Shown: one piece after another, positions 23,030 through 56,671 of the stretch
Layout: each line of letters begins with the position of its first letter
How positions within the stretch are numbered: position 1 is the first letter of the stretch
DNA from: Candidatus Obscuribacterales bacterium
Lineage (GTDB): Bacteria; Cyanobacteriota; Vampirovibrionia; Obscuribacterales; Obscuribacteraceae
Assembly: GCA_965228855.1 (NCBI GenBank)
Contig: CBDDIJ010000005.1
Coordinates: 1,408,001-1,472,000 of the forward strand
Reading direction: 5' to 3'
DNA length: 64,000 bases
Notes under the pieces: generated by a model
Databases searched by the model: none
Seen by the model: only the letters and a program-made list of their open reading frames with translations
What the model was told of the DNA's origin: nothing
Program-made: the position numbers and the translations under genes

Positions 23030-23293
23030 CATTCGGACGCTGAAGTCAGCTCAATCTGAATACAGTTCGACGAGCGGACATCCAGCCCGACGAGTTGAAC
23101 TCCAAACCCGATGAGTTGAACTCCAACCGAAGAAGCGGAACACCAAGGTCAGAAATAACTGCACGCCAGCCCATCTAATGCGGCTGGCGTTTCCTTTTGC
23201 GCCCGCGCCATAGCTCAAGCCAAGCCTCACCTGACCCAGAGCTCGCCCCTGCCCTAGTTCAAGCCACAACTCGACCTTAGAGCTTAGTCCACA

Positions 23294-23645
23294 GAATGTG
23301 TAAAAATCCGATCCAAATTCGCCAAATTTGGCCGTCAATTCTACACATTCGACCTGTTTCGCACGGACACGCCCGACCCATAATCCATTCAAGCCCAGCG
23401 AGTCCGCACTAACTCGATTCCGCCCAGCGAGTCCGCCAATGGCTTCGCAAAATGTGTAAAAAACCGATCAGAATTCGCACAAATTGGCCGTCAATTCTAC
23501 ACATTCGACCCGTTTCGGACGGACACGCCCGACACATTCGACCCGTTTCGGACGGACACGCCCGACACATTCGACCTGTTTCGCACGGACACGCCCGACC
23601 CATTCGACCCGCTTCGGACGGACACGCCCGTGTTTCGGACGGACA
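23294..23645. repeat. Intergenic composite repeat: duplicated ~85-bp block plus 33-bp tandem units
   Basis: CACATTCGACCCGTTTCGGACGGACACGCCCGA occurs about 4 times in tandem from 23500, with one more copy near 23345. Block 23295-23378 recurs from 23451. Confidence 0.9.
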
Positions 23646-28396: not shown

Positions 28397-31300
28397 ATGG
28401 TCGGAAGATTGAATAAAGCGCTGCCGTTGAAAACGGCAGCCTGGTGCCTGTTCGTCGGTTTCGGGGTGAATCAAGCAATAGAGCCGGCCGCTGCGCAACC
28501 GGACGGACGCGCCGACCACAGAGCAGCACACGCTCTCGATTTGGTGAGGTCCCGCGATGCCAGAAGAAGCGATCGGGCAGAACGACAGGCCGAACGACTT
28601 TTTATGAAGAACGGCGGAGAAGTGCGAGTTCTGAATGCGACCCGCCTTGATGTTGCAACGGCAAAATCATTTCAAGTTCAGATGGAGAGGCTGCCCCGAC
28701 GAATGAACTTGCAGTTTGAGACTGCTCAAAATCAGCTTCAAACCTTGAATCTCAACTCCACGCGTCAAACAGTCGCTGCGCCAACTTTCGATGGCACGGT
28801 AGACATTCAGGTCTCCAGAGGCAAAAGCACTGAGACCTTGACGGTAGACAGCTCCACACGCCTCACTGCAGCACAAGCTGTTGCAGTACACCAGGTTCTG
28901 TACGAGAACGGGCAAACTATCGAAATCGGCAGAAGGGGCGATGCTGTCGGCGGCAGCTTTTCACTCACCAATCAACTGGGTCAAAACCTGGAGAGCCTGT
29001 CTATCCCTAAAGATGTAACAGTTATTCGGGACTTCGGAACCGAGTCGAACCTCTCTTTTACGGGCGATATCGTTAACCGCGGCAGCATCCATGTGGTATC
29101 GTCGGCGCCATCAGTTTCCAGCGCCGAAATCAGCGCTCTAAACATTCGCAATGCAAAAACCGGCGTAATCGACTCTACAGGAGATGTAAGCCTGAGCTTG
29201 GTTGCACAACGAGATCTTATTAACAACGGCGTAATAAGCAGTTCGCGCGATCTCAATCTTACTGCAGGAGACGGAATCTACAATCAATCAGAGATTGGGA
29301 ATTCATCACCACAGGCGGCACTATCCGCACAAGGAAACTTGGCATTAAATTCCAATCTAATCATCAACCAGGGTCAAATAAATGCCACTACCGGCAATAT
29401 CGTGATTCCGGGCTTGCGTCACAATTCGGAAAATCAAACGGTGGCTCTTGCAGTTTATGCTTCCGGAGGATCCTTTAATGCCCTGAATGGAAACATCATC
29501 CTCGGTGACAGTTCGGTCTTTCAAACAAACGATTCGATAGAATTGCTCGGCGGTGATTATCACTCACAAAGTCTTATAGTGGAGGCAGGTGAAGGCAAAG
29601 TCAACGGCACCGTCGGTGATGTCACAGGCAAACTGGAAGTCAGGGCTCGGGAGGCCCACATAGGCGTTTCATCTGACAACCTCATACTGGGCGAGAGCCT
29701 CATAACTGGTGACCCGACCTTCTTTAATGATGCTGGCTCGGTAACCATCACTGCAAACTTAAGTTTCGGAGAAGCCATCGCAATCCTTGCAAGCGGCGAT
29801 GTTACTGACGGGGGTTCAGGCCGTAACATTGCAGCACTAAATGGAACGGTTGGCCAACCGATCACCATCATTGCCGGTGCCAACCTGACTGCTAATGATG
29901 GAGCATTGCCGAATTCCAATGCTCAAGCAGGAAATCAGATATCGGCGGGCTCTGTTACCGTGAATGGTGCATCTGCATCCGGTGGCTCTGTTCTCTTATC
30001 TAACTCCACTCTCAGTTCTAGCAGCACCTCGAATGGCTCTGCCGCAGGAGACGTGACTATTTTAGCCTTTGCAGGGAGCAATGGCGGCTCCGGCACAGTC
30101 AGTGTCGGCACAATTTCGGCTTCTGGGCTTGGCAACGGCAATGACGGTAACATCGTCGTGATCGCCGGGGCCAATTCGGGCACCGCCATTAGCTTGACGA
30201 CGGCCTTCACATCGGGAGGTTCAACCGGCGGCACACCCGGAGCCGTGACACTGACGACTGCTCAACCGACAGCAAAGTTGACCTTCGACCAGTTCGGTAT
30301 CGGCACAGGCAAATTCGGAGCAAGCAAGTCTCTTGCAGCCGGCGCAATTTCTGTGGACTTTATTGCCACGCTTGGCGGAGCGATCAATTTGAGCACTGCC
30401 GGCGCAGTCACCACCGGTACCGCCGGCAGTTCAATCTTCAGCGCAGGCGGTGACATATCGATAGTCGCAGGCTCATTGTCCGCACTACGCGGAATCAACG
30501 CAGACGGTTCCGACGGCGTTGCTGCCGCTGTTCCTGGAGCCGCTGGAGGTAACGGACAAAATGGCGGCAACATCACCATCACAACTACTGGCTCCGTCGC
30601 GACCGCAGTTACCGCGAATCTCAGCAGTAGAGGTGGCACAGGCGGCGTCGGAGCCGCAGGCAGCGACGGCACCGTCGGCACTGGAGCAGCTGGTGGAGCC
30701 GGTGGCGCAGGAGGCAGAGGAGGCGACGCCGGCAACATTGTTATCCTCTTTAATGACTCCGCAACCTTAAATGGACAGCTCTTTGCCACCGGGGGCACGG
30801 GTGGCGCAGGGGCTGATGCCGGCAATGGCGCCACAGGGTCAAACGGCGGTAACGGCGGTAGTGGCGGCACCGGCGGTTCCGGAGGGAACGCAGGTTCAAT
30901 CTCAATTTCGTCACGCAGCGGGGGCGATATCCTGATTGGAAATCAAGTCAACGCTAGCGGAGGCACGAGCAGATCCGGTGGAATGGGAGGCCAAGGTGGA
31001 AACGGGAGTGTCAACAACGGCAATGGTGGCGCAGGCGGTGCAGCCGGGATAGCCGGTGCAGGTGGAACTGTTTCGATTGCCACAACTGAATCCGGAAACA
31101 TCACTCTCAACGCAGTTATCGCTCGAGGTGGACTGGGTGATAACGGAGGCCTGGGCGGAAACGCGAGCGCCACTAATGGCAACGTCCTGGGTGGCAATGG
31201 TGGCGATGGTGGTAAAGGTGGTGACGGAGGAATCGGAGGCTCTGTCTCGGTTACGGCAGTCAACGGTCTGATCACGCTTAGCGGTTTCGTGCTGGCAGAT

Positions 31301-33409
31301 GGAGGAGACGGTAGCGATGGCTCCAACGGTGGAAACGCGGGCGGCTCAAATACGGTCACCGGCGGCACTGGCGGTACTGGTGGCTCTGCAGGGCGAGGAG
31401 GAGACGGAGGCTCAGTATTCGTTTCCACCGGAAAGAAATCGAGTGGATCGATAATCGCGGTCGACTCTCTTTCTGCTAGCGGCGGTCTGACGAGATCGGG
31501 CGGAAACGGTGGCGCAGGGGGTGCAGGGGGCTCCGGCGGTGAGGGCGGAACCGGAGGTACAGGCGGCAACGGCAGCTCCGGAGGTAATGGTGGCACTCTG
31601 ACAGTCCAGGCTAATACAGTGACGATGACAGCGACTTCCGGAGCGTTCGGCGGCGGACAATCAGGTCAGGTTGGCAACGGTGGCGCCGGCGGTGACCACT
31701 CCTCAGGCGGAAAAGGTGGAAGCGGGGGCGCTGGCGGCATTGGAGCTGTACAGGGAGCCGGAGGCGTAGTCAAAGTCTCAGGAGGCGATCTGTCAGTCTT
31801 CGAGTTATTCGCGAGCGGCGGAATTTCAGCCAGCATCCTTGGTGGCACTGGCGGTGCGGGCGGCGATGGTAGTATTGGAGGGAACGGTGGTAATGGCAGC
31901 TCGCCTGGCACCGCCGGTAGTGGCGGGCAAGTCATAATGTCCGGGAAAACTATAACGGCTTCAGGCAGACTGAGCGCTGCTGCTGGAGATAGCTCTAGAG
32001 GCGGTTTTGGCGGAGCCGGAGGTGACGGAACCACCGGAAGTGGAGGAAATGGAGGCAACGCCGGCACATATGCAAACGCCGGCGCAGGAGGACTGGTAAG
32101 TCTGACCACAAAAAACAAATCGGCACCAGCGAACATCTCTGTCGGTACGATTGACGTCTCAGCATCGACAGCGGCTGATCCCGGCTCGGTCGGAGGTAAT
32201 GCAGGCAATCAGACAACACCTTCGAGCGGCACGGGAGGAATTGGTGGAGCAGGAGGATCTGCCGGAACCTCTGCGAATGCTGGCAAGGTAACGGTCAAAA
32301 GCGGCGCGGCTGTTTCAATAAACAACCTGGAGGCCGACGGAAGTACTAATCAGGTCGGCCGGGGCGGTCGAGGCGGTAACTCGTCGACAACAGGCGGATT
32401 GGGCGGCAACGGCGGATCAGGCAGGATCAGCGGCAGTGGCGGAATCGTCTCGATCAAAGCATCGGGACTTGTTTCGGGTAGCGGCACCTGGAGAGCCGAC
32501 GGAGGAAGCACATCCTCGGCTAGCGGCGGAGACGGTGGAGACGGCAGTAATCAGGGTGGAAACGCCGGCACGACCAGCACAGCAGGAGATGCCGGCTCAG
32601 GAGGCAGCATAACGGTTTCAACCAAAGCCGGAATCAACCTTTCCACAATTAACGCAAGGGGTGGTTCCGCTGCGGCTGTAAATGTCTCGGGCGTCGGTGG
32701 CATTAGTGTAGCCGGCGCCGGCGGCGTCGGTGGAGGTTCGGCGGCCCTCGCCGGAGCCGGAGGTACTGGTGGCAAAGTAATCCTGAAAGCGAAGACGAAT
32801 GTGAACGTCAGTTCAGCAGCTCGGGTCGACGGCGGCAGCGGTCAGCGAATTTTCGGCGGAACAGGCGGCAATAGCACCAACGGCACCGGCGGTCAGGGCG
32901 GTGCAGGAGGCATCAGCGGTGCCGGCGGAGATGCTGGCTCACTTTCAGTCAAGACATCTGGTCTTGCCACCCTGGTCACCGCATCAGCAGTTGGTGGCGC
33001 CGGCGGCGACGGCGGTTTTGGAGGAGAAGGCGGTAATTCTACGAATGCGCTCGGGGGTGAAGGCGGTGTCGGAGGAGCCGGTGCCCTTGGAGGAGACGGT
33101 GGCAGCATAAGCATCAAAGCCTCTGACGTCACCTTCGTCACCAGTGCGTCAGCCGATGGCGGCAGCGGAGGCGATGGCGGATTCGGCGGGGACGGCGGCT
33201 TAGGTACAACAGTCGGAGCCGGAGGAGATGCGCAACCGGCTGGCAATGGCGGCGACGGCGGAACCATCAAGACTTCGGATCCAACGGGAATAAGCGGCAC
33301 TGCCAACGGTGGAGCTGGCGGTAGCGTCGGGCTTGGTGGCGCCGGACTACCGGCCGGAAACAATTCAACTGCAGGCTCTAACGGAGCAGACGGCACGGTT
33401 TCACCATAG
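28397..33409 (+). CDS. 1670-aa Gly-rich exoprotein (haemagglutinin-like N half, PGRS-like C half)
   Basis: Signal peptide, beta-helix-like N.G.I repeats, then many GGxGGxGG units separated by short beta strands. Confidence 0.8.
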   Translation: MVGRLNKALPLKTAAWCLFVGFGVNQAIEPAAAQPDGRADHRAAHALDLVRSRDARRSDRAERQAERLFMKNGGEVRVLNATRLDVATAKSFQVQMERLPRRMNLQFETAQNQLQTLNLNSTRQTVAAPTFDGTVDIQVSRGKSTETLTVDSSTRLTAAQAVAVHQVLYENGQTIEIGRRGDAVGGSFSLTNQLGQNLESLSIPKDVTVIRDFGTESNLSFTGDIVNRGSIHVVSSAPSVSSAEISALNIRNAKTGVIDSTGDVSLSLVAQRDLINNGVISSSRDLNLTAGDGIYNQSEIGNSSPQAALSAQGNLALNSNLIINQGQINATTGNIVIPGLRHNSENQTVALAVYASGGSFNALNGNIILGDSSVFQTNDSIELLGGDYHSQSLIVEAGEGKVNGTVGDVTGKLEVRAREAHIGVSSDNLILGESLITGDPTFFNDAGSVTITANLSFGEAIAILASGDVTDGGSGRNIAALNGTVGQPITIIAGANLTANDGALPNSNAQAGNQISAGSVTVNGASASGGSVLLSNSTLSSSSTSNGSAAGDVTILAFAGSNGGSGTVSVGTISASGLGNGNDGNIVVIAGANSGTAISLTTAFTSGGSTGGTPGAVTLTTAQPTAKLTFDQFGIGTGKFGASKSLAAGAISVDFIATLGGAINLSTAGAVTTGTAGSSIFSAGGDISIVAGSLSALRGINADGSDGVAAAVPGAAGGNGQNGGNITITTTGSVATAVTANLSSRGGTGGVGAAGSDGTVGTGAAGGAGGAGGRGGDAGNIVILFNDSATLNGQLFATGGTGGAGADAGNGATGSNGGNGGSGGTGGSGGNAGSISISSRSGGDILIGNQVNASGGTSRSGGMGGQGGNGSVNNGNGGAGGAAGIAGAGGTVSIATTESGNITLNAVIARGGLGDNGGLGGNASATNGNVLGGNGGDGGKGGDGGIGGSVSVTAVNGLITLSGFVLADGGDGSDGSNGGNAGGSNTVTGGTGGTGGSAGRGGDGGSVFVSTGKKSSGSIIAVDSLSASGGLTRSGGNGGAGGAGGSGGEGGTGGTGGNGSSGGNGGTLTVQANTVTMTATSGAFGGGQSGQVGNGGAGGDHSSGGKGGSGGAGGIGAVQGAGGVVKVSGGDLSVFELFASGGISASILGGTGGAGGDGSIGGNGGNGSSPGTAGSGGQVIMSGKTITASGRLSAAAGDSSRGGFGGAGGDGTTGSGGNGGNAGTYANAGAGGLVSLTTKNKSAPANISVGTIDVSASTAADPGSVGGNAGNQTTPSSGTGGIGGAGGSAGTSANAGKVTVKSGAAVSINNLEADGSTNQVGRGGRGGNSSTTGGLGGNGGSGRISGSGGIVSIKASGLVSGSGTWRADGGSTSSASGGDGGDGSNQGGNAGTTSTAGDAGSGGSITVSTKAGINLSTINARGGSAAAVNVSGVGGISVAGAGGVGGGSAALAGAGGTGGKVILKAKTNVNVSSAARVDGGSGQRIFGGTGGNSTNGTGGQGGAGGISGAGGDAGSLSVKTSGLATLVTASAVGGAGGDGGFGGEGGNSTNALGGEGGVGGAGALGGDGGSISIKASDVTFVTSASADGGSGGDGGFGGDGGLGTTVGAGGDAQPAGNGGDGGTIKTSDPTGISGTANGGAGGSVGLGGAGLPAGNNSTAGSNGADGTVSP

Positions 33410-45277: not shown

Positions 45278-46303
45278 TTAGGAGAGCTGTTTCAACACCC
45301 AGAGGAGCTTTTCCTTCACGCGCTTTCGATGCGGAGAGCCGTCCTGCTTGTGTTTGAAGACCGAATAATTGGCAATAAACTGATCGTAGTTTTCGCTAAG
45401 CATTTCGACATTCGAATACTTCGGCTTCCAGCCAAGCGCTGTAAGCGGTTTCAAATCGAAGTAGAAATCTTCGCCGTAAGTCAAATAGTGCCAGGGCGCC
45501 AGGGGGCTGAGCCCAAACTTATCGAGCGCTTGCAGTGTTTCAATCGCCAGATGCTTCGGCAAATGTTTTACTTTCGTGTCGGTGCCCGCATGCTGGATGA
45601 GCGCAGTAAGAGTCTCTTCCAGCGTTCCGAACCGATCGGTTCCAACATTGTAAAACCCCGGTCTCTCTTGCCGGCAGAGAAACATATAGCAATCAATCAG
45701 ATCATCGGCATGTAAAAACTGAATCTTGTTTTTGCCGTCGCCCAGCACATAGATGTTTCGCCCCTCCTTGATCCACTCGAACAAAATCTGAAATATGCCG
45801 AGACGCCCGGTACCAATTAGAGTTCGCGGTCTAACGACAATCAGTGGCATGTTGTGTTGCTTCGCTACCTCTTCGACTGCGCGCTCGCCCTGGAGTTTCG
45901 AGAGACCATACTTTTCGACCGGCTTCAATGGCGTCTCGTTACCAGCTGGGCATGGGGGTTTACCGAATATCGCACTGGAGCTAGTGTGCACAAAATACTT
46001 CACACCAGCGCGCGCCGCCTCTTCTGCAACGATTCGGCTACCTTCAACGTTTACTTCGTTAAACTTGTCATTCTGCTTGGTGAGCGGCACGAGCGCCGCA
46101 GTGTGATGAACAACCTCGACATCCTTCATCAGACGCCGCACTAAATCGCGGTCCAGAACGCTGCCCAAAACGAACTCAACATCCGGTAACTGATCCGGCG
46201 CTTCCCAAACATCGAGCGACACCACCTGAATGCCCTTGGACAGGAGGCTTTCAGCGATCACCATTCCAAGAAATCCGCAACCTCCGGTAATTAAGTGCTT
46301 CAT
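45278..46303 (-). CDS. NAD-dependent epimerase/dehydratase (extended SDR)
   Basis: ITGGCGFLG, HTSSSA, YGLSK. Confidence 0.9.
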   Translation of the reverse strand: MKHLITGGCGFLGMVIAESLLSKGIQVVSLDVWEAPDQLPDVEFVLGSVLDRDLVRRLMKDVEVVHHTAALVPLTKQNDKFNEVNVEGSRIVAEEAARAGVKYFVHTSSSAIFGKPPCPAGNETPLKPVEKYGLSKLQGERAVEEVAKQHNMPLIVVRPRTLIGTGRLGIFQILFEWIKEGRNIYVLGDGKNKIQFLHADDLIDCYMFLCRQERPGFYNVGTDRFGTLEETLTALIQHAGTDTKVKHLPKHLAIETLQALDKFGLSPLAPWHYLTYGEDFYFDLKPLTALGWKPKYSNVEMLSENYDQFIANYSVFKHKQDGSPHRKRVKEKLLWVLKQLS

Positions 46304-46423
46304 CTCCCGCTCTTGTAATCTCCCCTGGGTTGTTCGTCCAATTAACTGTGATATCGTTGTGGGTGTATTCTCGCATGGTTTCCCTACCTCAGGTTCGAGG
46401 TCCTGGGCAATGGAGTTGTCGCT

Positions 46424-47383
46424 TTGACCTCTGATTCGAACACGATAGCAAGCGGACGCAGAGTAACCCTTGTCGTTCCTGGAAGTACCAGCAATTTGGG
46501 ACCCGGACTCGACACAATAGGACTGGCTCTAAACATTCAGAGCAAAATGACCTTCCACGTTGCGGACGAGAGCGAGGCGGCGAACATGCCCTTCGTCAAA
46601 CTATCAGGCGCTATAAGGAAAAGCCAGCCAGAGGACCAGGGAAAGCTCGTATACACGATTTTGAGCAAGATCTGGGAGCACGACAATGACCTGTTGAAGC
46701 GCGTGCGCATCACTGTGCAATCTGACATCCCGCTCGGTTGCGGGCTAGGCAGCTCGGCGAGCAGCATACTGGGCGCGCTGTGGGCGTCGTCGGTTTTTTG
46801 CGATAAAATTCCCACCGCTCAAACACTTCTCGCTGAAGGATGCGCTCTGGAAGGGCATCCGGAAACGCTTGCTGCAAGCCTCTACGGCGGCATGGTCGTT
46901 TGCGCGCCGAGCGTCAACGGTAATCGCATAATCACACAACAGATAGCCTGGCCGGACGATTGGCATATTCTGGCAGTGATTCCCGATTACACTTTGCACA
47001 CGGCGGACCTCCGAGCAGCGCTGCCCAAGCAGGTTAAACTAGAAGACGCAATCTTCAACGCCCAACGCGTCGGGCTCCTGGTCGCCGCCGTCACGCGCAG
47101 CGACGAATCGGCGATGAAAGAAGCGCTCAACGACAGGCTTCATGAACAATACCGCGAAAAATTTGTTCCGGAACTGAAACAGCTGCGCCGCGAACTCGTC
47201 AACGACCCTGTGATCGGCTGCGTCCTCAGCGGCGCCGGCTCGTCATGCGTCATCATCGTGAAAAGCAAGAAGAAAGAACAGGTAAAAGAACGCCTCGAAC
47301 ACTTCGCCCAAACCGCCGAAAAACCCCACCGCATCCTGGACCTCCAGGTCGCCAAAGAAGGCATGCAAGAACTCGAAATTTAG
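46424..47383 (+). CDS. thrB: Homoserine kinase
   Basis: VPGSTSNLGPGLD, IPLGCGLGSS, EGHP, DRLHEQYR, LSGAG. Confidence 0.92.
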   Translation: MTSDSNTIASGRRVTLVVPGSTSNLGPGLDTIGLALNIQSKMTFHVADESEAANMPFVKLSGAIRKSQPEDQGKLVYTILSKIWEHDNDLLKRVRITVQSDIPLGCGLGSSASSILGALWASSVFCDKIPTAQTLLAEGCALEGHPETLAASLYGGMVVCAPSVNGNRIITQQIAWPDDWHILAVIPDYTLHTADLRAALPKQVKLEDAIFNAQRVGLLVAAVTRSDESAMKEALNDRLHEQYREKFVPELKQLRRELVNDPVIGCVLSGAGSSCVIIVKSKKKEQVKERLEHFAQTAEKPHRILDLQVAKEGMQELEI

Positions 47384-47395
47384 AAAAAATTTTTA

Positions 47396-47590
47396 TCTAC
47401 TATATACCAGAGTATCAACATTTCCCCAAAACCCCTGTCCAGCCAGCCTTTCCAACCTCAGTCCTCCGTTTCAGGCTCAGTTTGGCTATCCCACGATGAC
47501 GGAATTCGCGAAATCTGTCTATGCCTGATAGACACCCAGAAGCGCTGCCAACAACACGCACGTCTTCTGGCGTCGCGAGTTTGCGAACGA
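47396..47590. repeat. Dispersed non-coding repeat, uninterrupted copy
   Basis: Co-linear blocks TCTACTATAT-19nt-CCCAAA..GTCCAG.CA..CTTTCC..TTTGGCTATCC..ATGACGGA..TAGACA are shared with 53298-53410 plus 54676 onward; right boundary approximate. Confidence 0.7.
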
Positions 47591-47649
47591 AGCAACAAAA
47601 CACATAGGAGGTTCAGTCGGTCCGGAAAAGAACTTCGTCTTCTACTGAT

Positions 47650-48012
47650 TCACCAGCTGCCCCGGAATAAGTTTAAGGCGCTTGTGAGCGCAATGGCGAG
47701 TACGTAGGCGAAGAGACAAATCGTCACTCCGAACAAGCAAAATTTATAGAACCCGCTGCGAAGTTCGTACCCCCTATCTTTCGCGAAGACGTGTAGCAAC
47801 AATCGAACCGGCGGCAAAATCAAAAAAGATAGGAAGAACCGCAGGCTCCAGCCGTCGTTGAAGCCCCACGTGAATCCGAGCACCAAGCAAAAGAAAATCA
47901 GAGCGACGTAAATCGTCCTGGCACGAAGACGCTTCGCCAGATCCACAGCCACCACTAAGGTAGTTGCTATCCAGCCGAGGTAAAAAGCGACAATACAATA
48001 GACCACACTCAT
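47650..48012 (-). CDS. Small 4-TM membrane protein, paralog A
   Basis: WIATT..RTIY..GFTW..PPVRL..GYELR..YKF. Confidence 0.75.
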   Translation of the reverse strand: MSVVYCIVAFYLGWIATTLVVAVDLAKRLRARTIYVALIFFCLVLGFTWGFNDGWSLRFFLSFLILPPVRLLLHVFAKDRGYELRSGFYKFCLFGVTICLFAYVLAIALTSALNLFRGSW

Positions 48013-48050
48013 ACGCCACCACCAACGACACCACCGAACAGACTAGACCT

Positions 48051-48452
48051 TCAACCATGCGACGGCATATTTTGAAACGCCCAGGTCGCGAGCATCGTCA
48101 ACCCCAATGCCGACATTACGCTCGCCCCAAACACCGCGCGGCGATACAGCGCAAACTGACCCAGGTAATCACCTTTTGCTTTGTTCAAGAAATACACCAC
48201 TGTTCTCACCGGAGCAATCGCCAGGAAAAACACCGGGAGGTACTCAACAATCGCCCACGCCTGCGACCAAAGAAAACCAATCGTCAGGAAACTCCCCATC
48301 AAAATCAGGTAAATCGTTCGCGCCTTAAACCGAAAAGAATGGCAGAAAAACTCAACGCAGATCGCGCCCACGACCGCAAAATAAGCGGCGGCGAGAATCG
48401 TCAGAAAGAACGAAAGTGCAAAACCGATTGCTACTATGCCTAAACCGTTCAC
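48051..48452 (-). CDS. Small 4-TM membrane protein, paralog B
   Basis: VEF..RTIYL..GFLW..APVR. Confidence 0.72.
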   Translation of the reverse strand: MNGLGIVAIGFALSFFLTILAAAYFAVVGAICVEFFCHSFRFKARTIYLILMGSFLTIGFLWSQAWAIVEYLPVFFLAIAPVRTVVYFLNKAKGDYLGQFALYRRAVFGASVMSALGLTMLATWAFQNMPSHG

Positions 48453-48563
48453 AAGCAGAGTCCCTCGATGAATTTGACTCGACCTACTCCTTGTTCTTGA
48501 GTCTAAAACGATCTTACAAGCTCCTTGATTTGTACGCTTGCCTCACCTATCATCCGTTTCCCT

Positions 48564-48959
48564 TCAACGCGCCAGGCTGACGTACAACACCATAACGATC
48601 CCAGTAAGAGCGAGAATCACAGCAACAAAACCCGCAGGAACCGACGAACTCATCACGAGAGTTTTGTACCTGGGATGCGTGAACAGCCTGTCATTTTCTG
48701 GCTTTATAAAGCGGCTTACAAACAACCTGAGCGGACAAAGTCCCAAAATTGCAACTCCCAAAAGGATCGCTCCCCAACAACTGTTCCATGTGAGTCCGAA
48801 AATCACAGAGAGTGCGACGAGGCTTGCATAAAAGTAAGTGGGGTGCGTTTTTGCGACAAGCGAGCCAAGCTCAGCTGCGACATAGATCGTGGTACCGAGC
48901 CAAACAAGCACAAAGGTTCCGGCGGTCAAGCAAACGAAAACTATAGCCAGTTGTCCCAT
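48564..48959 (-). CDS. Small 4-TM membrane protein, paralog C
   Basis: WLGTT..AEL..GLTW..CPLRL..YK..SSVP. Confidence 0.72.
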   Translation of the reverse strand: MGQLAIVFVCLTAGTFVLVWLGTTIYVAAELGSLVAKTHPTYFYASLVALSVIFGLTWNSCWGAILLGVAILGLCPLRLFVSRFIKPENDRLFTHPRYKTLVMSSSVPAGFVAVILALTGIVMVLYVSLAR

Positions 48960-49037
48960 TGTTCACTTACCGTCTAAAGGTCCTGAAACCTATTGTACAG
49001 CGAGGTGACGAATGGAGGTAACTTGCACCACATGTCG

Positions 49038-49688
49038 TCACGGTAGCGGTATATTCGGTCCTCGACGGAATTTGTCAGGGTCAGTATCAGCTCCCAGCCC
49101 AAATCTTCTTTGCCACTTCAGCGGAACAGAAATGCGCTGTTTCACATCGCCGTTCCATTCAGGCTTGAAACCGTTCTCGCGCATAACATCGCAAATCTCT
49201 TGCGCTATCGAAACACCATCAAAACCCTCACAAGCCGAATGTGCAAGCCAAAGTTCACGCCCGGCAATCGCACCTTCGACGTCCTGCCCGTGATAGACGC
49301 AGCCGCCGCGAACCTTCGACACCAGTCCCGCCGCCTTCCACTCGTCGTAAACCAGCTCATTCCAATCAGACCAGGCATCGCTCATAGTGTAGCCCAAGTT
49401 CTCAGCACTCAAAATACCGCGGGACGTCAGCTTTTCGAACGCTTTTGTCAAACGGTCGCAATCGGTTTCATCCGGCCAAGTGCGCTCTGCTTCAGCCTTT
49501 TTATCGAACTCCTGCTGCACCAGGGTCGAAACCAACTCCTCATCGACCTCGTCTGGTGGCTCGTCCGAGAATTGCCCCTCCTCTACCGCCTCGAGCGCAG
49601 CTTCAAGAATTTCCTCGGGCGTGCAAAAACCGCTCCAGACCTGTAACGGAAGGAAGTTCTCCTTCAGTTCAACATACGCTTCGTGCAT
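49038..49688 (-). CDS. Acidic hypothetical protein, DUF6891-like
   Basis: WPDETDCDRL..AF..L...GI, YHGQD, W.G....RI...WQRR; start set at ATG 49688. Confidence 0.7.
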   Translation of the reverse strand: MHEAYVELKENFLPLQVWSGFCTPEEILEAALEAVEEGQFSDEPPDEVDEELVSTLVQQEFDKKAEAERTWPDETDCDRLTKAFEKLTSRGILSAENLGYTMSDAWSDWNELVYDEWKAAGLVSKVRGGCVYHGQDVEGAIAGRELWLAHSACEGFDGVSIAQEICDVMRENGFKPEWNGDVKQRISVPLKWQRRFGLGADTDPDKFRRGPNIPLP

Positions 49689-49969
49689 TCTAAAAACCCT
49701 TTTTTCACGTAGCCATATTTTACCGCTGACGAAGTCGATGCCTGCGTCAATAGCTATTGAAATTTGGCGCAATTTTACCATTCGCGCTAAGCTTGAGGTT
49801 GAATCTCTGTTCGGCACTTAACTGCGATTTTCTTCGAAGATTGTATGTCGCAATTGCCTTCTTGGAGATCCAAAACACGACCACCTGAGGATACAACCTA
49901 TGCGAGCGATCGCACCACAAAACCTCACCGTATGTGGTGCCATCCTCCTCTAACTGCCGTGGTGTTGCG

Positions 49970-50344
49970 ATGTTGTTCATGTTGGTTATTGCATTACTTG
50001 GTCTCTACGTGTTTTTCTGGATCGGCACAACTTGTATCATCGTTGTAGAATTCGCTAGACAGTTCAGCACGAGAACTTTGTACCTGGCCTTAATCACCCT
50101 TTTTCTGCTGCTTGGTCTCACTTGGTGTTCAAATTCACCAGCATGGTGCCTAGGAGGAGTATGCGCCAGTTGCTTCGTTCTTCCGGCGGTGCGGCTTTGG
50201 TTGCACCTTTCATTTGCGTCGGAAGGCTACGAACTTCGAGGCGACAGAGGCTACAAGTTTCTTGTCTACGGGTCAACCATTCCAATTTGCACGGTCTTCA
50301 CGCTGATCTTCATATCGCTTCTGTTCATTGCCATGAAAACATAA
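49970..50344 (+). CDS. Small 4-TM membrane protein, paralog D
   Basis: WIGTT..VEF..RTLY..GLTW..PAVRL..GYELR..YKF; closest to paralog A, opposite orientation. Confidence 0.75.
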   Translation: MLFMLVIALLGLYVFFWIGTTCIIVVEFARQFSTRTLYLALITLFLLLGLTWCSNSPAWCLGGVCASCFVLPAVRLWLHLSFASEGYELRGDRGYKFLVYGSTIPICTVFTLIFISLLFIAMKT

Positions 50345-50446
50345 TTCAACCACAGCGCTGTCGATGGAGCGTTCTGATGCGGCGATGACACCTACCAGTG
50401 CTATCGGATTCTTTGAATAGCAAGACAACTTGAGTAGCCTTTCAGC

Positions 50447-50842
50447 TCACAGCGAAACAAGCCAAACTATTGCCACTGCGCAAAGTCCTAGGATTGACAC
50501 CGTCGCGCTAAAGAACACTCCATAACAGAAAAACTGATTTTGGTCTAACCAGTCTTTAGCAGACGATGCTGGGTTCCGGCGCGCAGCAGCGAGAACTCGA
50601 AGCGGAGCAATTAACAGCACAGGGACTTCGACGACTAGCGCGTTATCGAAGCGAAACCAAAGCAATCCAATGGCCGTACTAGCGAAAATGACGAAGAGAT
50701 ACAACCTCCAGCTTTTGTATCTGCCCAATTTCAGAACGAACTCAACTACTATTGCCAGCTGAATACAGATATAAGCGAGCGGCAAAAGCGCTGCCAGCGC
50801 CAGCGAAATAGGTCCCACCCAATTGGCAGAAATCGATCCCAT
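50447..50842 (-). CDS. Small 4-TM membrane protein, paralog E
   Basis: VEF..RLYL..GLLW..APLR; closest to paralog B. Confidence 0.7.
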   Translation of the reverse strand: MGSISANWVGPISLALAALLPLAYICIQLAIVVEFVLKLGRYKSWRLYLFVIFASTAIGLLWFRFDNALVVEVPVLLIAPLRVLAAARRNPASSAKDWLDQNQFFCYGVFFSATVSILGLCAVAIVWLVSL

Positions 50843-50917
50843 AGCATTATGCTAGCGCAACATAAGATTGAGTGCTCCAGCACAGGCAATCGCGTTCTGG
50901 CAACGACACTTAGCTTT

Positions 50918-51325
50918 TCACGTGCCCAAAAGTGACGTTAAGAACGTGAATCCGTAGACAAATGCGACTCCTGCTCCAGCCAAACCCATCAACCCGGTCG
51001 GAACACTTGAAAGAACGAGCATCCATCTGTAATCCGAATTTGCTACAACCGGGTCTCTCGGAATTTGCACCACACGGGAGAGTAAAAGACGGAGGGGACA
51101 TATAGAAATTGCGAGACACAGAAGAAAAAAACAGCTCCAGGGCTTGTTCCATAAGAGTCCGCAAAGAGCCGACAGAGCTATGACTAGGCGGTTGCGTATT
51201 GCCTGGACGCCGATTTTGTTTGCGCCCCAGTAGTCGCGACAAACTCCACATCGCGACAGCTCGCGCCCGCTCCGCAAACGCCCGCTAATTGTTAACAGAT
51301 CAAAAAGAGATCTCCGAGTTCTCAT
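50918..51325 (-). pseudogene. Paralog F with a degenerate or truncated N-terminus
   Basis: The C-terminal part matches paralog C (GLLWN..CPLRL..SSVP), but a hydrophilic sequence replaces the first TM helix. Confidence 0.5.
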
Positions 51326-51666
51326 TAGAGCTATGTATAGCGAGCTTCAAATACCACCAAGGTTCAGTACATTCGCGCGATGTCTTAGAGTCTCGCTAAC
51401 TCCTCTCTTGATTAAACATGCTCTTGACCTTTGTCCCGCCTGAACCCTAGGGTGGTCGACGTACGTGTTTTAATTTTCAACCAGAGGCAAACTTTCCAAC
51501 CGGAAAACCTCTCCCTCTTTCTCAACCTGACGTAAGTTCTCTAGCTACTCGCTAGGCGATAGGTGTGGGCTTTGCCGCGCCTTCTGTTTGAGCACCCGAT
51601 GCAACCGGATGCCCGAACTAGCCACGCTTTGTAGCAGAGCTGTCAATCAAACCCAAGGAGACAGCC

Positions 51667-52842
51667 ATGTTTGGTATCGACACCTCAGTGCTCATCGCAC
51701 TGCTGCTTATTGCTGTGGCGGTTGGCGCGGTTTTCGCAGCCAAGCGACGCAACAACATCGACAATCGGGTCATCGTCGTTTCCGACGAAGACTTCGACCC
51801 CGTTCACCGCGGCTGGGGCCACCGTCACGACGACGAAGGTCCTTGCAAGTTCGACCGCAACGAAGTCCGCCGCACGATGCACAACGCCGTGCCGCCCATC
51901 GACATGTCGAACATCCCGGCGCCCGAAGCCTTCGTCCAGAAGCTGCTGAAGTGCGTCAACGCCGACGAACTCGCCGAACTCGTCGCTGGACTGTCCGGCG
52001 AAAAGCCGGTCTACGTCGGCGACCAGCACGTCACCCTCAAGAGCCGCAGCACCCATGGTCCGGGCGTGTGGCTGGCGATGACGTGGCTCGAGCAGTTCTA
52101 CCGCTCGCTCGGAATCGAAGTGAAGCGCATCCCCTACAAGGTCGGCGGCGAAACGCTGTTCAACCTCGAGGCGATCAAGCGCGGCAAGTCGACCGGCAAG
52201 AAGCCGAAGGTCTACATCGCGGGCTCGCACCTCGATTCGACCGCCGGCAACACCTGGAGCAACGAGAAGGTCGCTCCTGGTGCGGATGATGACGGCTCCG
52301 GCACCATCGCCGTTCTGAAGCTCGCCGAAGCGATGAAGGACCTCGTCCTCCCGGACGACGTCGAAGTTCGCTATCTGCACTTCACCGGCGAGGAGCAGGG
52401 GCTCTGGGGCAGCAAGAAGTACGCTCAGGCGTGCAAGGCTGCCGGCGACAACATCATCCACATGTGGCAGTGCGACATGATCGGCTACTGCCGCACCGAG
52501 GAGCACATGTTCGACATCCACGACAACGTGGACCAGAACGGCAGCCACGAGATGACCGTGCTCCTCGTTCGCACCATCGCCCAGTACGGTCTCAACCTGA
52601 AGCCCATCGACACGCACAACCGCGCGGTCGAAGGTCGCAGCGACCACGCTCCGTTCACGGCCTACGGCTGGAAGGGCGTGCTCGTCAGCGAGCGCTTCAC
52701 GGACGAGGACTTCACGCCGTACTACCACACCACCGAAGACCGCGTCGGCAAGTTCCGCATGCCGTTCTACGTGGCGATCGTTCAGGCGATGATCGCGACC
52801 CTCATCCACGACTCGGGCGCCAAGCCGGCCAGCCTGCGTTAA
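51667..52842 (+). CDS. M28 family Zn-aminopeptidase with an N-terminal membrane anchor
   Basis: SHLDS, GADDDGSG, GEEQGLWGS, DMIG, SDH, YHT; SD AAGGAG; very high GC3. Confidence 0.9.
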   Translation: MFGIDTSVLIALLLIAVAVGAVFAAKRRNNIDNRVIVVSDEDFDPVHRGWGHRHDDEGPCKFDRNEVRRTMHNAVPPIDMSNIPAPEAFVQKLLKCVNADELAELVAGLSGEKPVYVGDQHVTLKSRSTHGPGVWLAMTWLEQFYRSLGIEVKRIPYKVGGETLFNLEAIKRGKSTGKKPKVYIAGSHLDSTAGNTWSNEKVAPGADDDGSGTIAVLKLAEAMKDLVLPDDVEVRYLHFTGEEQGLWGSKKYAQACKAAGDNIIHMWQCDMIGYCRTEEHMFDIHDNVDQNGSHEMTVLLVRTIAQYGLNLKPIDTHNRAVEGRSDHAPFTAYGWKGVLVSERFTDEDFTPYYHTTEDRVGKFRMPFYVAIVQAMIATLIHDSGAKPASLR

Positions 52843-52923
52843 CGCTTCGCAAGGGTGAGTTGCACACCCTCGCTTAGCGTGCGTCAGGTTGAATCCGGTT
52901 GGACCTCCAACGAAAGGGACATT

Positions 52924-53175
52924 TTGAGAAGAACTCATCGTGAAACGGTGCTGATGCGCAATCGTCAGCGCCTCTCCATGCAGCACCACAACCTCTCCGC
53001 AGAAGAGGCTCCGCAGGGGCGTTTCCGCAAACGGCATCCGCTGGATTGTGGTCGTGCCAAGTGCAAGCTCTGTTCTGGCGAAAAGCTCTTCGGCAAGCGT
53101 TCGGTAAATCGCCAGCGCGCCGACGAAGCCTTCTCCTGCCAGCTCGCCGAAGTCGAGTCTGCTGTTAGCGCGTAG
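52924..53175 (+). CDS. Small basic Cys-motif hypothetical protein
   Basis: SD AAGGGA before TTG 52924; GRFRKRHPLDCGRAKCKLC; followed by a long hairpin. Confidence 0.6.
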   Translation: MRRTHRETVLMRNRQRLSMQHHNLSAEEAPQGRFRKRHPLDCGRAKCKLCSGEKLFGKRSVNRQRADEAFSCQLAEVESAVSA

Positions 53176-53193
53176 GTGCAGTCCCATCAACCT

Positions 53194-53236
53194 GGGGCGG
53201 TTGGAGTAACAGTCGCAAGACAACTCTGACCGCCCC
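53194..53236 (+). terminator. Strong stem-loop after the peptidase operon
   Basis: GGGGCGGTTGGAGT...ACTCTGACCGCCCC; no clear T-tract. Confidence 0.45.
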
Positions 53237-53427
53237 GCACGAGACGAAGAACAAGGCCACAAGCCAACCTTCTTCGCCTCGTGTTTTCCAGAACTTGTCT
53301 ACTATATGCCGACATAGTCCGCAACACCCAAAGTGCAGTCCAGGCATGCTTTCCCACCCAAACGCCCTTGCCCAACCTCCTGCAAACCCGGTTTTGGCTA
53401 TCCAGCTATGAGATAGTGTGTTCGCTG

Positions 53428-54393
53428 TCAACAATGAACGCTTAGATGATTGGGATTAAATGGTGTCTTTGTCCTGTAGATCGCCATCATGATGCGAAGT
53501 AGCTTGCGCATGGCGGCGCACAAGATGACTTTCCTTGGTTTGCACTTCTCTGCCAACTTTGTCGCGAATTTTTGAATGGCAGGGTTTGATCGAACTGCGC
53601 TCAGAGACGCCATGTAGAAAACTTTCCGGAGGCGCTTGCAGCCTTTCTTAGACATCTTCGGACGCCCTCGAACAGAAGTTCCAGACTCGCGCAATTCCGG
53701 AGTCAAGCCGCAGTAGCTCTCGACTTCTCTCAACGACTCGAAGGAATCCAAGCCGGAAATTTCCGTGAGAAACGTGAGTGCCGAGATCAAACCGACTCCA
53801 GGGATGGTTTGCAGTAAGGCGAGATCGTTCTGAAATTGCGGTTCGGACTTGATCAAGAGGTCTCGAGCCTGTTCCAGCAGCAAAATCTCATTGTTGATGA
53901 ATTCGATTTGCCGCTGAAGCGAGATACTCACAGGTTCGTCGAGCCGACCGGACTCGGTACGATTCACGGTTCTGGTTCGGTCGGTCTTGAGCGCATCAAT
54001 GTGACGCTCAATGTTGCGAATCTTCCGGACCACGTCCGGGAGGGGCGTCCAGGTCTTCGGTTGAATCAGTTTGCAAAACTGTGCGATTACCTCGGCATCA
54101 ATTGCGTCCGTCTTTGAACGCTTCAACAGGCTTTTGCCAAAGTTTTTGATCTGAACAGGATTGACGACGCTGACGGCAAAACCTTTGTCGCAGAAGTATT
54201 CTGCGAGTGGCTCCCAGAGCTTTCCAGTGGCCTCCATGCAAATTTGTACTTCGCTTTCGGTGTGCTGATTCAGCCACTTCTCAATTCGCCGAAATCCGCT
54301 GTCAGAGTTGTCAGCGTGCAACTTCCGCCCTCGTTCCGAGAGCAGATAGCAATCCACAGTCTCTTTAGAGATGTCTATCCCAAGTGATATCAC
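53428..54393 (-). CDS. IS110 family recombinase (DEDD RuvC-like + Tnp domain)
   Basis: GIDISK, CMEATG, KTDAIDA, TIPGVG, GLTP..ESG.S, K.G...LR; SD GGAGG before GTG; frame intact. Confidence 0.96.
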   Translation of the reverse strand: MISLGIDISKETVDCYLLSERGRKLHADNSDSGFRRIEKWLNQHTESEVQICMEATGKLWEPLAEYFCDKGFAVSVVNPVQIKNFGKSLLKRSKTDAIDAEVIAQFCKLIQPKTWTPLPDVVRKIRNIERHIDALKTDRTRTVNRTESGRLDEPVSISLQRQIEFINNEILLLEQARDLLIKSEPQFQNDLALLQTIPGVGLISALTFLTEISGLDSFESLREVESYCGLTPELRESGTSVRGRPKMSKKGCKRLRKVFYMASLSAVRSNPAIQKFATKLAEKCKPRKVILCAAMRKLLRIMMAIYRTKTPFNPNHLSVHC

Positions 54394-54444
54394 GATGCGC
54401 CTCCATTTAGACTTGCCAACCTACACAGGACGCGGATAGAATCT

Positions 54445-54660
54445 TGTCAGGGCGAGCCTTGTACGCATGCTAAATCGTTCTAGGATTTGCATCTGATAGT
54501 GTTCAGCCTCAGAGGACAAGACAGAAACGGAAGTCCAAACCTCATAGCCTGACTTCGCGGTCATACGCTTTTTCCTGGTTTCTTCCGTTTCTCTATCCTC
54601 GCGTCCTCGGATAGCCTTGCCGACAGCAGGACCTGGTGTCAATTGATTGGGTCTGCTGTC
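54445..54660 (-). ncRNA. Putative IS110 bridge RNA
   Basis: Two stem/internal-loop/hairpin modules (54512-54600 and ~54453-54510) whose loops match the target flanks and the element ends; RNA termini approximate. Confidence 0.8.
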
Positions 54661-54744
54661 AATCTCTAACGTACAACGGATTTAGAAAATTCCGGCATCG
54701 TAGCGTAGACAAACCACCTTGTATTACTGCGACTACAGCGACGT

Positions 54745-54864
54745 CAAAACCGGTCAACGCTTGCGGCACAGACTCTTCCAGCTTTCACAAACCAACTACG
54801 ACGTTTAGTAGTCTTTCGCGTGACTGCAAAACCGGTCAATGCTTGCGGCACAGACCTTTTCAGC
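54745..54864. repeat. Direct repeat pair, 29-nt core, period 82 nt
   Basis: CAAAACCGGTCAA(C/T)GCTTGCGGCACAGAC at 54745 and 54827. Confidence 0.85.
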
Positions 54865-55011
54865 ATTTGCATATCCACCACTGCATCTAGTAGCAAAAGC
54901 CGACAGCCACTACTGCATTTAGTAGTAAATTTTTCAAGAGAACCAGCCGCAGAATTGAGTTCTGCAGCCGGTTCTGAGAAGACCACTCGTCAGAGCGGTT
55001 CAATAGCGGTT

Positions 55012-55248
55012 CTACGCGCTTCGCCGAAGTGCTACGCGCTCCACACGCAACTCAGGATGCACCTGCGCGCCCTTGTCGCGAGTCCTACCAATCGTTTTGC
55101 CGCAGCACTCACACACGTCTAACTGACGGCTGTGCACGCGACAACAGAGGTGACCGCGAGGAATGCTGAATTTGCAGCCTTCAGCCGTACACTTGCGAGT
55201 GCCCTCGCCTTCATGATTTTCGTTTGCAGAACATTTTTTGCAGACCAT
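55012..55248 (-). CDS. Small Cys-rich putative Zn-binding protein
   Basis: SD GGAG upstream of ATG; MVCKKC..C....C..HLCC..H..CECCGK. Confidence 0.65.
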   Translation of the reverse strand: MVCKKCSANENHEGEGTRKCTAEGCKFSIPRGHLCCRVHSRQLDVCECCGKTIGRTRDKGAQVHPELRVERVALRRSA

Positions 55249-55327
55249 AAAGTCTCCAGGTTAGAACTTGAACTCGGCCGGAAGCCGAGGCACGCGCCTC
55301 ACGCTTCCGACCGAAAACACCCACGAA

Positions 55328-55855
55328 TCAGTTATTGCACCTTGAACTGCTGAACCACCGTGCCGACAGGAACGCGGAATCCTGACGCACGTAGCGTTCG
55401 CGTTCCTTCAGGAAGATGCCCCAGTTGTACAGCGCCGAATCCGGATCGCACTCGCGAATCGTCGTGCGCCAGTAACCGACGTCCTTCAGCTCCGGGTCTT
55501 CGATGAGGCGCACGAGATCATTGGCGTACACCGAGCGGGGAGCCAGGCTGCCGTCGTCCATGCGCTGCATGAAGTTGTAGGTCACGGTGCTGTTGACGGA
55601 GCCGGAGCCCCAGATGAAAGTACCGGACAGCCCGTCCGAGCTGCGCATCGAGACGAGCGTGCCCGGTCCGTATACCGTGTCCTTCATCGGCACGAATGCA
55701 CCGACCACCATCGCACAGATGAAGCCGACGAAGGCACCAGCGCAAGGTCCGGCGATGCCGCCGAACAGGAACTTGCCCCAGCTGCGCTCGCCGAAGACGG
55801 CGATGATGACACCGAGCAGAAAACCGACGGCGACACCAAGCAGAATTGAGTTCAT
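55328..55855 (-). CDS. Membrane-anchored hypothetical protein with a probable frameshift near the 3' end
   Basis: Two N-terminal TM helices, SD AAGGA, high GC3; codon pattern continues in a shifted frame after ~55380. Confidence 0.7.
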   Translation of the reverse strand: MNSILLGVAVGFLLGVIIAVFGERSWGKFLFGGIAGPCAGAFVGFICAMVVGAFVPMKDTVYGPGTLVSMRSSDGLSGTFIWGSGSVNSTVTYNFMQRMDDGSLAPRSVYANDLVRLIEDPELKDVGYWRTTIRECDPDSALYNWGIFLKERERYVRQDSAFLSARWFSSSRCNN

Positions 55856-56332
55856 ATCAGTTGTCCTTTGCTAGTAGTGAGCGGTTTCAGTCCGCTTCCA
55901 GCCACGAGTTGAAGGTGATAGACGCGCTTCTCCACGAAAATCGAACGCAGAGCGAAACGACCTCGTGCCGAAACAGCTGACAGAGCCAACGGTTTCAATC
56001 TCGAAGAGATAGTCTGGTTGTTATTCTTGGCTGAGTCTCTCGGAAAATAAAAAGCGCGAATACGTTCTCATCTTGTTCTTCTGTTCTTCCAACAAGCAAA
56101 CATTGTGAACAGAATCAAACCAAAATCGCGTTCTTTGACCTAGCGCGCTTTCACTAGCAAGCGCAGGCCGCGCGCCGGCGCCAACGATTCGCGAGCAATA
56201 TCCGATCTCGAGGTGCTGCGTATTTTCCCCACTGCAACTGCGAAAGTCGCGATTGGTACAGCCTCGGTCTTTCTATGCAAGTCTCCGAGACGCCCTCCGT
56301 GTGCTACAGAGCAGTCGGAGGACTGGACTCTC

Positions 56333-56671
56333 ATGAAAAACATGGTTTTAATCGCGACACTGTTATCCTCGATGGCGGGACAGGCATTAGCGGACCAACT
56401 CAGCGTGGATGCGCCGCAGCTCGATCAGAAGGACACTGCTGTGAATCAGCAAATTTTTGAGCTGGAAAAAAACAACGTGCTGTCGAGCACGGAGGCCGCT
56501 GTTCTGCAGGCGCGCCGCGGCAACATCATGAGAGAGGCAAACATCCGCCGGAAGAAAAACAATGGCATCCTGCCAACTGCCGACCTTCGCGAACTAAGTA
56601 AGCGCATGGACAACATGTCAAAGCAGGTCAGCAGGCGCGTAGCAGCCCGTTCCACAACGACTACGCAGTAG
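56333..56671 (+). CDS. Small secreted helical protein
   Basis: Signal peptide MKNMVLIATLLSSMAGQALA; GGAGG/GGA upstream. Confidence 0.7.
   Translation: MKNMVLIATLLSSMAGQALADQLSVDAPQLDQKDTAVNQQIFELEKNNVLSSTEAAVLQARRGNIMREANIRRKKNNGILPTADLRELSKRMDNMSKQVSRRVAARSTTTTQ

Follow-up and report, generated by a model that had tools for sequence, protein, structure and literature searches.

A phased palindromic repeat family behind transcription terminators near the replication origin of a Candidatus Obscuribacterales bacterium, and its use as a target by two sister IS110 elements

The stretch of DNA studied here (the window, 64,000 nucleotides) lies on contig C5 (CBDDIJ010000005.1) of the genome of a Candidatus Obscuribacterales bacterium (G000, assembly GCA_965228855.1; 8.2 Mb in 6 contigs, 95% complete), and it carries two copies of a dispersed palindromic repeat, one of which is interrupted by an insertion sequence (IS) of the IS110 family. 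The repeat belongs to a real family that is undescribed in the literature searched, which lacks most subscription journals; it is placed in the genome like repetitive extragenic palindromes (REPs) and is built like a multi-site protein-DNA complex. We give about an even chance to the reading that it is a selected host module of double-stranded DNA, bound by protein and serving a structural role. The genome was compared with that of a relative strain (G007, 93% identical in the region of the window) over 560 kb, and also with runs X6 and X9, the metagenome locus L137 and a third strain (86-96% identical).

A BLAST search with the repeat gave well over a hundred matches in the source genome, and its outer arms, TGkCTAy and rTAGmCA, were found at a total length of 52 bp in 132 exact cases against a mean background of 0.5. 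An iterated family profile, with the reversed genome as null, retrieved 210 intact cores of 52 bp (matches above 18 bits), whereas nothing above 12 bits was found in the reversed genome. The cores occupy 159 loci and represent 199 distinct sequences, they show no length variation, and there are nearly no decayed ones, as 208 score above 32 bits and 211 above 12 bits; beyond them there are 19 truncated or weak halves and 4 halves cut by an IS. Each half of the core is a 19-bp dyad with the invariant pattern GkC-N11-GmC, and the two dyad centres are 33 bp (three helical turns) apart. The geometry at the centre of the core is 11-6-11, with central hexamers that are unlike between copies.

Outside the core there is a CTACTA box, located 70-112 bp from the core in 175 of the 210 cases and present on both sides, pointing inward, in 54. 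Words of the type CTACTATA occur within 400 bp of a core in 236 of 292 instances. In sequence the box, which is AT-rich and unstructured, forms a dyad of the degenerate type TACTA-N7-TAGTA. Weak tracts of CCC.AAA and TTT.GG come after it, and what remains of the arm is on average 30% identical across loci. The distances between box and core in 185 arms fall into four discrete classes, 74-76 bp (7 arms), 84-88 bp (74), 94-100 bp (94) and 107-111 bp (10), with no arms in between. The peaks thus lie at about 75, 86, 97 and 108 bp, and the third strain shows the same ones; a spacing that recurs at 11 bp is, in the available text of PMC3001091, a signature of looped DNA in vivo. Two related groups were seen. 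One, a subfamily whose ends are TGTCAA, has no box and is arranged as 73-bp arrays; the other, a third family, carries TGCAA-N6-TTGCA twice with the same 33-bp spacing and amounts to 46 copies at 12 loci, always in tandem arrays of 102-103 bp (for example at C2:145605, 572604, 907849, 1043740 and 1488766, and at C5:885498 and 1605008). The third family frequently adjoins or replaces the element with box and core, and the families B and C can stand at the same sites.

By gene calls from our own script, 207 of the 210 are intergenic, and gaps between convergent genes hold a core much more often (54/82) than gaps between divergent genes (12/122, p = 3e-17). With regard to their distribution along the chromosome, 174 of the 210 lie in a zone of 1.05 Mb (C2:77-1122 kb), corresponding to 167 per Mb compared with 5 elsewhere. 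This zone includes dnaA and the GC-skew minimum, has a lower coding density and contains many genes with a high third-position GC content (GC3). In G007 the end of C5 is continuous with the start of C2, and the window is therefore located on the thin flank of the core-rich zone. A hairpin below -12 kcal/mol was found in 124 of the 142 outer arms that lie behind a gene end, and it ended 8-22 nt before the box in 98 of these 142 arms compared with 9 of 54 other arms; hairpins in the zone that have no core were followed by a box in only 15 of 323 cases. Orientation relative to replication was mixed (98 with it, 128 against it), and no gene family recurred beside the cores except the IS110s.

Several other features of the same genome were observed. 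In the origin-proximal region (C2:0-1.1 Mb and the end of C5) 20-80% of the genes have a third-position GC content above 0.75, compared with about 0% elsewhere; the same kind of zone is seen in the genomes G002 and G005 (L114, L117), and its appearance suggests either an old import of genes on a massive scale or a regional bias. A second intergenic palindrome, AACCGATATCGGTT, is present outside the origin zone, where its roughly 28 loci are packed closely into three patches (C5:1.11-1.21 Mb, C3:0.95-1.07 Mb and C3:1.50-1.53 Mb), and in 40-bp tandem arrays in G006 (L121) and G013 (L120); it looks centromere-like or regulon-like. Recurrent promoter-like intergenic words end in CAAAAAGTTCAAT (14 loci) and ACCACATGCGGT, and about 21 tRNA genes stand densely at C3:724518-727973, in a phage- or island-like manner.

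Between orthologous copies the cores diverge by 3.6% (20 pairs) and the arms by 7.5-14.5% (20 pairs). The bases just 5' of the box were considered as a site of hypermutation between strains; their divergence of 13% falls within the range of the arms, and they are therefore not special. At core positions 20-21 there is an anti-palindromic constraint (z about -3, with T in both halves in 3 of 210), and when partners were shuffled a small excess of pairing appeared at some positions, partly contributed by the subfamily. The earlier note on this DNA had proposed a noncoding RNA or a conserved hairpin, which the data do not bear out: among 50 cores hairpin pairing was 73.1% compared with 72.2% in shuffled sequences, 80 of 500 shuffles were as high (37 of 500 for the covariation score), and a search of Rfam over positions 46000-56500 gave no matches up to an E value of 5.

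The family has a narrow range. A pattern scan of 107 genomes of the order placed only G000 (167 matches) and G007 (137) above background, the rest having 0-8; G062 gave 8 matches to the inner pattern against 2 for the control. None of 400 other genomes of the phylum contained the core pattern. The metagenome matches came from two assemblies of one close strain, and a GTDB-wide scan gave, among the matches listed, one look-alike contig under the label Acidobacteria as well as a record under the label Obscuribacterales, and more distant holders may exist. The copies in G006 and in the record labelled Acidobacteria lie on contigs that are 73-92% like G000 and were not counted as a wider range. 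In G002 and G005, some 145 kb around dnaA and the kinase gene were searched de novo for another repeat; none was found, and the positive control worked. At orthologous sites in G002, G005 and G006 the box and arm persist without the core, and the box may consequently be older.

The IS110 elements show how the core is used by mobile DNA. The source genome has seven IS110 recombinase genes, all of them inside cores. Four near-identical copies (IS110-A) are inserted at core position 17/18 and three (IS110-B) at core position 48-50, and G007 has one more copy at another locus, also within a core. Their membership of the family, which needs no terminal repeats, is indicated by recombinase (DEDD) and Tnp_20 domains together with predicted target and donor guides, all of which are present. 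The proteins of IS110-A and IS110-B are 52% identical; at the two elements' non-coding ends the left donor guide is the same and the right one similar, whereas the target guides are unlike, each matching its own core position as the bridge model has it. In IS110-A the donor core is CT, and the target core to which it is joined is GT. Genome-wide, the A target 9-mer occurs at 68 sites and the B target 10-mer at 37, and 21 and 22 unoccupied intact cores, respectively, contain them. The two sister elements thus appear, from the match of their guides to two core positions, to use the core as a safe harbour, and here the earlier proposal of a dispersed extragenic family serving IS110 in this way held. 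The available parts of PMC11208160 describe bridge-RNA guides pairing with target and donor in the IS110 family, and the use of intergenic repeats by such elements is already known from there and from 10.64898/2026.03.19.712850, likewise in its available part. As far as the text of these sources goes, IS621, ISPpu9 and ISPpu10 are similar in having bridge guides that match an intergenic repeat and a CT donor core, but differ from the present case of two sister elements that share a donor loop and use two target loops to hit two positions of one repeat.

The features of the two copies in the window and of the DNA between them are as follows.
46424..47383, plus strand: homoserine-kinase-like gene (Pfam GHMP kinase N and C domains), with its stop 13 nt 5' of box 1.
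47397..47414, plus strand: box of copy 1, a dyad of the degenerate form TACTA-N7-TAGTA that reads CTACTATA-N6-AGTA and stands 86 bp ahead of the core.
47415..47482, plus strand: variable arm belonging to copy 1; CCC.AAA and TTT.GG tracts, weak and phased, are seen in the family profile.
47483..47534, no strand: intact 52-bp core of copy 1, two 19-bp dyads with centres 33 bp apart, 63 bits.
47650..51325, no strand: variable block with six paralogous open reading frames (ORFs) for small membrane proteins and a DUF6891 gene.
51667..52842, plus strand: M28 peptidase gene, within the bracket and beside the kinase gene also in species that lack the core.
53239..53287, plus strand: terminator-like inverted repeat and T run, read from the sequence, ending about 11 nt before box 2.
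53299..53316, plus strand: box belonging to copy 2, 96 bp ahead of its core.
53395..53411, no strand: positions 1-17 of the core of copy 2, left of the IS.
53412..54676, minus strand: IS110-A element of 1265 bp, one of four near-identical copies.
53428..54393, minus strand: IS110 recombinase gene (PF01548 and PF02371; NF033542 above cut-off).
54458..54573, minus strand: predicted bridge-RNA guides, with exact matches to target and circle-junction sequences.
54573-54565 (left) and 54548-54542 (right), minus strand: predicted target guides, by sequence match.
54503-54495 (left) and 54465-54458 (right), minus strand: predicted donor guides, by the same kind of match.
54677..54711, no strand: positions 18-52 of the core of copy 2, right of the IS.
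54712..54925, minus strand: copy 2 has a second arm here, inverted, in which degenerate boxes stand at 54811, 54893 and 54925.

Removal of the IS (one A being shared) rebuilds a 52-bp core from 53395-53411 and 54677-54711, which scores 63 bits on the family profile and aligns without gaps to the core of copy 1, the only intact one in the window and identical in G007. The ungapped alignment described in the earlier note is thereby confirmed, with 34 of 52 positions the same; it should be underlined that this pairwise match is only modestly above chance, as the best match elsewhere in the window reaches 27-28 and 200 shuffled queries at most 32, compared with a family of 210 cores against none in the null. 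Other details of that description also stand: the box and CCCAAA are 19 nt apart in both copies, both copies lie downstream of plus-strand genes and opposite minus-strand genes, and the right-target guide fits the occupied half but has two mismatches to the empty copy. The palindrome, on the other hand, is 52 bp rather than about 200 bp, the one-armed unit being about 150-160 bp and copy 2 extending through its inverted arm to 54925. The phasing of the box, the anchoring behind terminators, the clustering at the origin and the duplications that start from the box had escaped the earlier note. The box of copy 1 is preceded by a T run only, without a terminator hairpin, and an 82-bp direct repeat (D10) is a duplication of the inverted arm of copy 2, whose site is empty and intact in G007, X6, X9 and L137.

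The 5.7 kb bracketed by the two copies is not a mobile unit; it varies internally and not at the repeats. A 41-kb contig of X6 that spans the kinase gene to the peptidase gene has internal replacements at 48422/49078 and 49689/51241 and keeps both ends, and in G005 and G006, where the core is missing, the peptidase gene stands next to the kinase gene. The six ORFs of the block (120-136 amino acids, with a GLTW...PVR motif) were found within the genome only here, are assigned to no family and are swapped between strains; one of them gave, in an atlas search, matches all below 0.9. Elsewhere in the window there is a 33-bp tandem repeat with a duplicate spaced by 156 bp (23292-23630) and a long glycine-rich repeat gene (30600-33350); Tandem Repeats Finder returned no rows.

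If the family is a structural module of the host, two protein dimers would occupy the 52-bp core, with dyad centres three turns apart, and would contact a partner bound to the box, which lies on the same face of the helix at a distance of 7 to 10 turns. About 150 bp would then be looped or wrapped just behind a transcription terminator, where the complex might constrain transcription supercoils or organise the region of the origin, the genus being one that yielded no chromosomal ParB. Growth of the units would be local, through duplications with a start at the box and a variable end. ParB was detected on contig C4 of G000 only and in none of 7 other genomes of the genus, SMC being present, and the genome contains a single parS-like match, scored by what we take to be the 16-bp palindrome pattern. 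Protein binding and the structural role are what we infer here, and several points weigh against them. The phasing would suit any multi-site protein complex, a mobilising enzyme included, and Rayleigh statistics overstate its significance, as two peaks dominate. The zone is lopsided about the origin (-712 kb and +330 kb), the stretch richest in GC3 (C2:0-77 kb) has no cores, and 36 cores are outside the zone; the counts of gaps and intergenic positions, moreover, depend on the gene calls of our own script. The core is restricted to one small clade, and sister species that have the high-GC3 zone and in which no ParB was found nevertheless lack it, so that it cannot be essential to the genus. 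Nor was a cognate protein found: two XerC-like paralogs in the zone were considered and rejected, since they are genus-wide and the closer ortholog is missing from G007. These paralogs (L124:1776-2714 and L125:1283-2056) are about 90% conserved across the genus, and their catalytic motifs look altered, judged by what we assume to be the consensus.

The strongest rival, possible though clearly less probable, is a selfish non-autonomous element, similar to REPINs or to miniature inverted-repeat transposable elements (MITEs), that an enzyme mobilised into terminator ends and that spread once and now only duplicates locally. It would account for an abundance limited to one clade and for the exact spacing behind terminators. 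The duplications, too, are in its favour: the source genome has 53 tandem ones (108 including G007 at a looser cut), with the left end at the box and the right end 24-227 bp further on, often inside the core and not at its centre, although the set was collected by searching from boxes without control start points. One such duplication is seen in X9 at box 1, several strain indels end just before a box, copy number within loci differs between strains, and the families B and C swap in at the same sites. Downstream, 12 array-edge pairs are 94% identical, but the value drops to 55% at -1 to -5 and to 33% at -6 to -10; the idea that junction bases are inverted copies of nearby DNA was abandoned (5.21 compared with 5.18 when shuffled). 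Against a selfish element, the loci are mostly fixed: 55 of 56 loci of G000 and 55 of 60 of G007 are common to both strains, 65 of 70 mapped cores are shared by the third strain, and the tail of decayed copies is missing. In G000 neither a RAYT (Y1, PF01797; 0 matches, at 95% completeness) nor an IS91 Y2 transposase was found, no target duplication of 4-10 bp around the core was above chance, the viral contigs and plasmids searched contained no core copies, and only the IS110s recur alongside. The lack of target duplication, the fixed loci and the lack of an autonomous partner with similar ends also speak against the earlier description of the repeat as MITE-like. Reverse transcriptases were considered and rejected: G000 has four, of which one, retron-like, adjoins an element, but such genes are found across the genus; the retron-like one (L126:1460-2629) ends just before a box, and G007 is without its final 385 bp up to the box.

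Host site and stalled selfish element may be stages of one history. A more far-reaching version of the structural reading, which we consider unlikely, is a ParB-independent organiser of the origin megabase, made of about 160 terminator-anchored, phased and protein-bound modules with sequence-swapped sister families and renewed by DNA synthesis from the transcript end; the last element is suggested by the fixed left end, the rewritten first 10 bases and the variable right end of the duplications.

An improbable alternative is a promoter module for antisense or small-RNA transcription, in which the box would be a -10-like element (TAnnnT on either strand) and the core an in-phase activator site. 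The AT-rich unstructured box, the phased A/T tracts and the survival of box and arm in the absence of the core in G002, G005 and G006 are in line with this, but neither strand has a -35 hexamer at 17 bp, sigma-54 was not found, the box is a dyad, and cores are depleted in divergent gaps. Still less credible are site-specific recombination sites, comparable to attC, pdif or dRS3, that bound cassettes such as the 5.7-kb block. The 11-6-11 geometry and three G007 genes that are flanked by core copies and missing from G000 could be taken in their favour; the block, however, varies internally, the central hexamers differ between copies, duplications end off the core centre, and genes by cores are not more variable than others (96.5 compared with 96.0% identity, p = 0.39; 2/98 compared with 29/285 missing in G007). 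Larger indels ended near a core in 10 of 21 cases (p = 0.26), and the recombination boundary suggested for the 5.7 kb is not supported. A structured RNA or single-strand hairpin, REP-like in mRNA 3' ends, hardly deserves belief, for in spite of the convergent gaps and 11 of 159 identical spacers against 3.3 expected, there is neither covariation nor an Rfam match, the element lies beyond the terminator, and its spacing follows DNA turns.

The attC, pdif, parS and IS91 architectures served in these comparisons alongside three described repeat systems. The closest are the CGTC and GTAG REPs with BIMEs and REPINs (PMC3733652), and the comparison rests on the text of that paper, whose consensus figures and supplements could alter it. 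Likewise high-copy extragenic palindromes, they share the convergent gaps, the patchy and clustered distribution and the role of IS110 target; the core half, with CGTC/TGTC ... MCA, resembles the tag and 3-bp tail of CGTC REPs (profile positions 34-37 and 50-52), and the box in reverse ends in GTAG as in GTAG REPs. CGTC REPs, however, have an 8-9 bp stem and a 4-5 nt loop, whereas here there are 12 nt with a longest stem of 0-2 bp in 420 halves. REPs also lie within 20 bp of a gene, whereas this family stands about 100 bp past the terminator with a phased box, is confined to the origin region, and has a fixed length of 52 bp, no covariation and no RAYT. The Neisseria dRS3/NIME repeats, in the available text of PMC1797815, are similarly conserved palindromes with variable spacers, syntenic with variable copy number and a recombinase target, but dRS3 measures 20 bp and its spacers 19-214 bp, while here the spacers are quantised, a second motif is present and the flanking genes are not more variable. 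The matS/MatP and SlmA sites, as far as the text of PMC3116907 describes them, are also palindromes limited to one replication-defined region; they are single sites of 12-13 bp in 23-50 copies, partly genic and with a known protein, in contrast to a multi-site module of about 150 bp at 159 intergenic loci on the origin side, which resembles them in position only.

There is no agreed function for REP-like repeats, decades after they became known. The readable geometry of this family, with its fixed core, quantised spacing, terminator anchor and confinement to the origin, makes it a direct bait for pull-down, and the family allows a structural role to be tested in a genus that yielded no chromosomal ParB. 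A natural pair of bridge recombinases is provided as well: they share one donor, their two targets lie 33 bp apart, and one of the pair has a mismatch between donor and target core.

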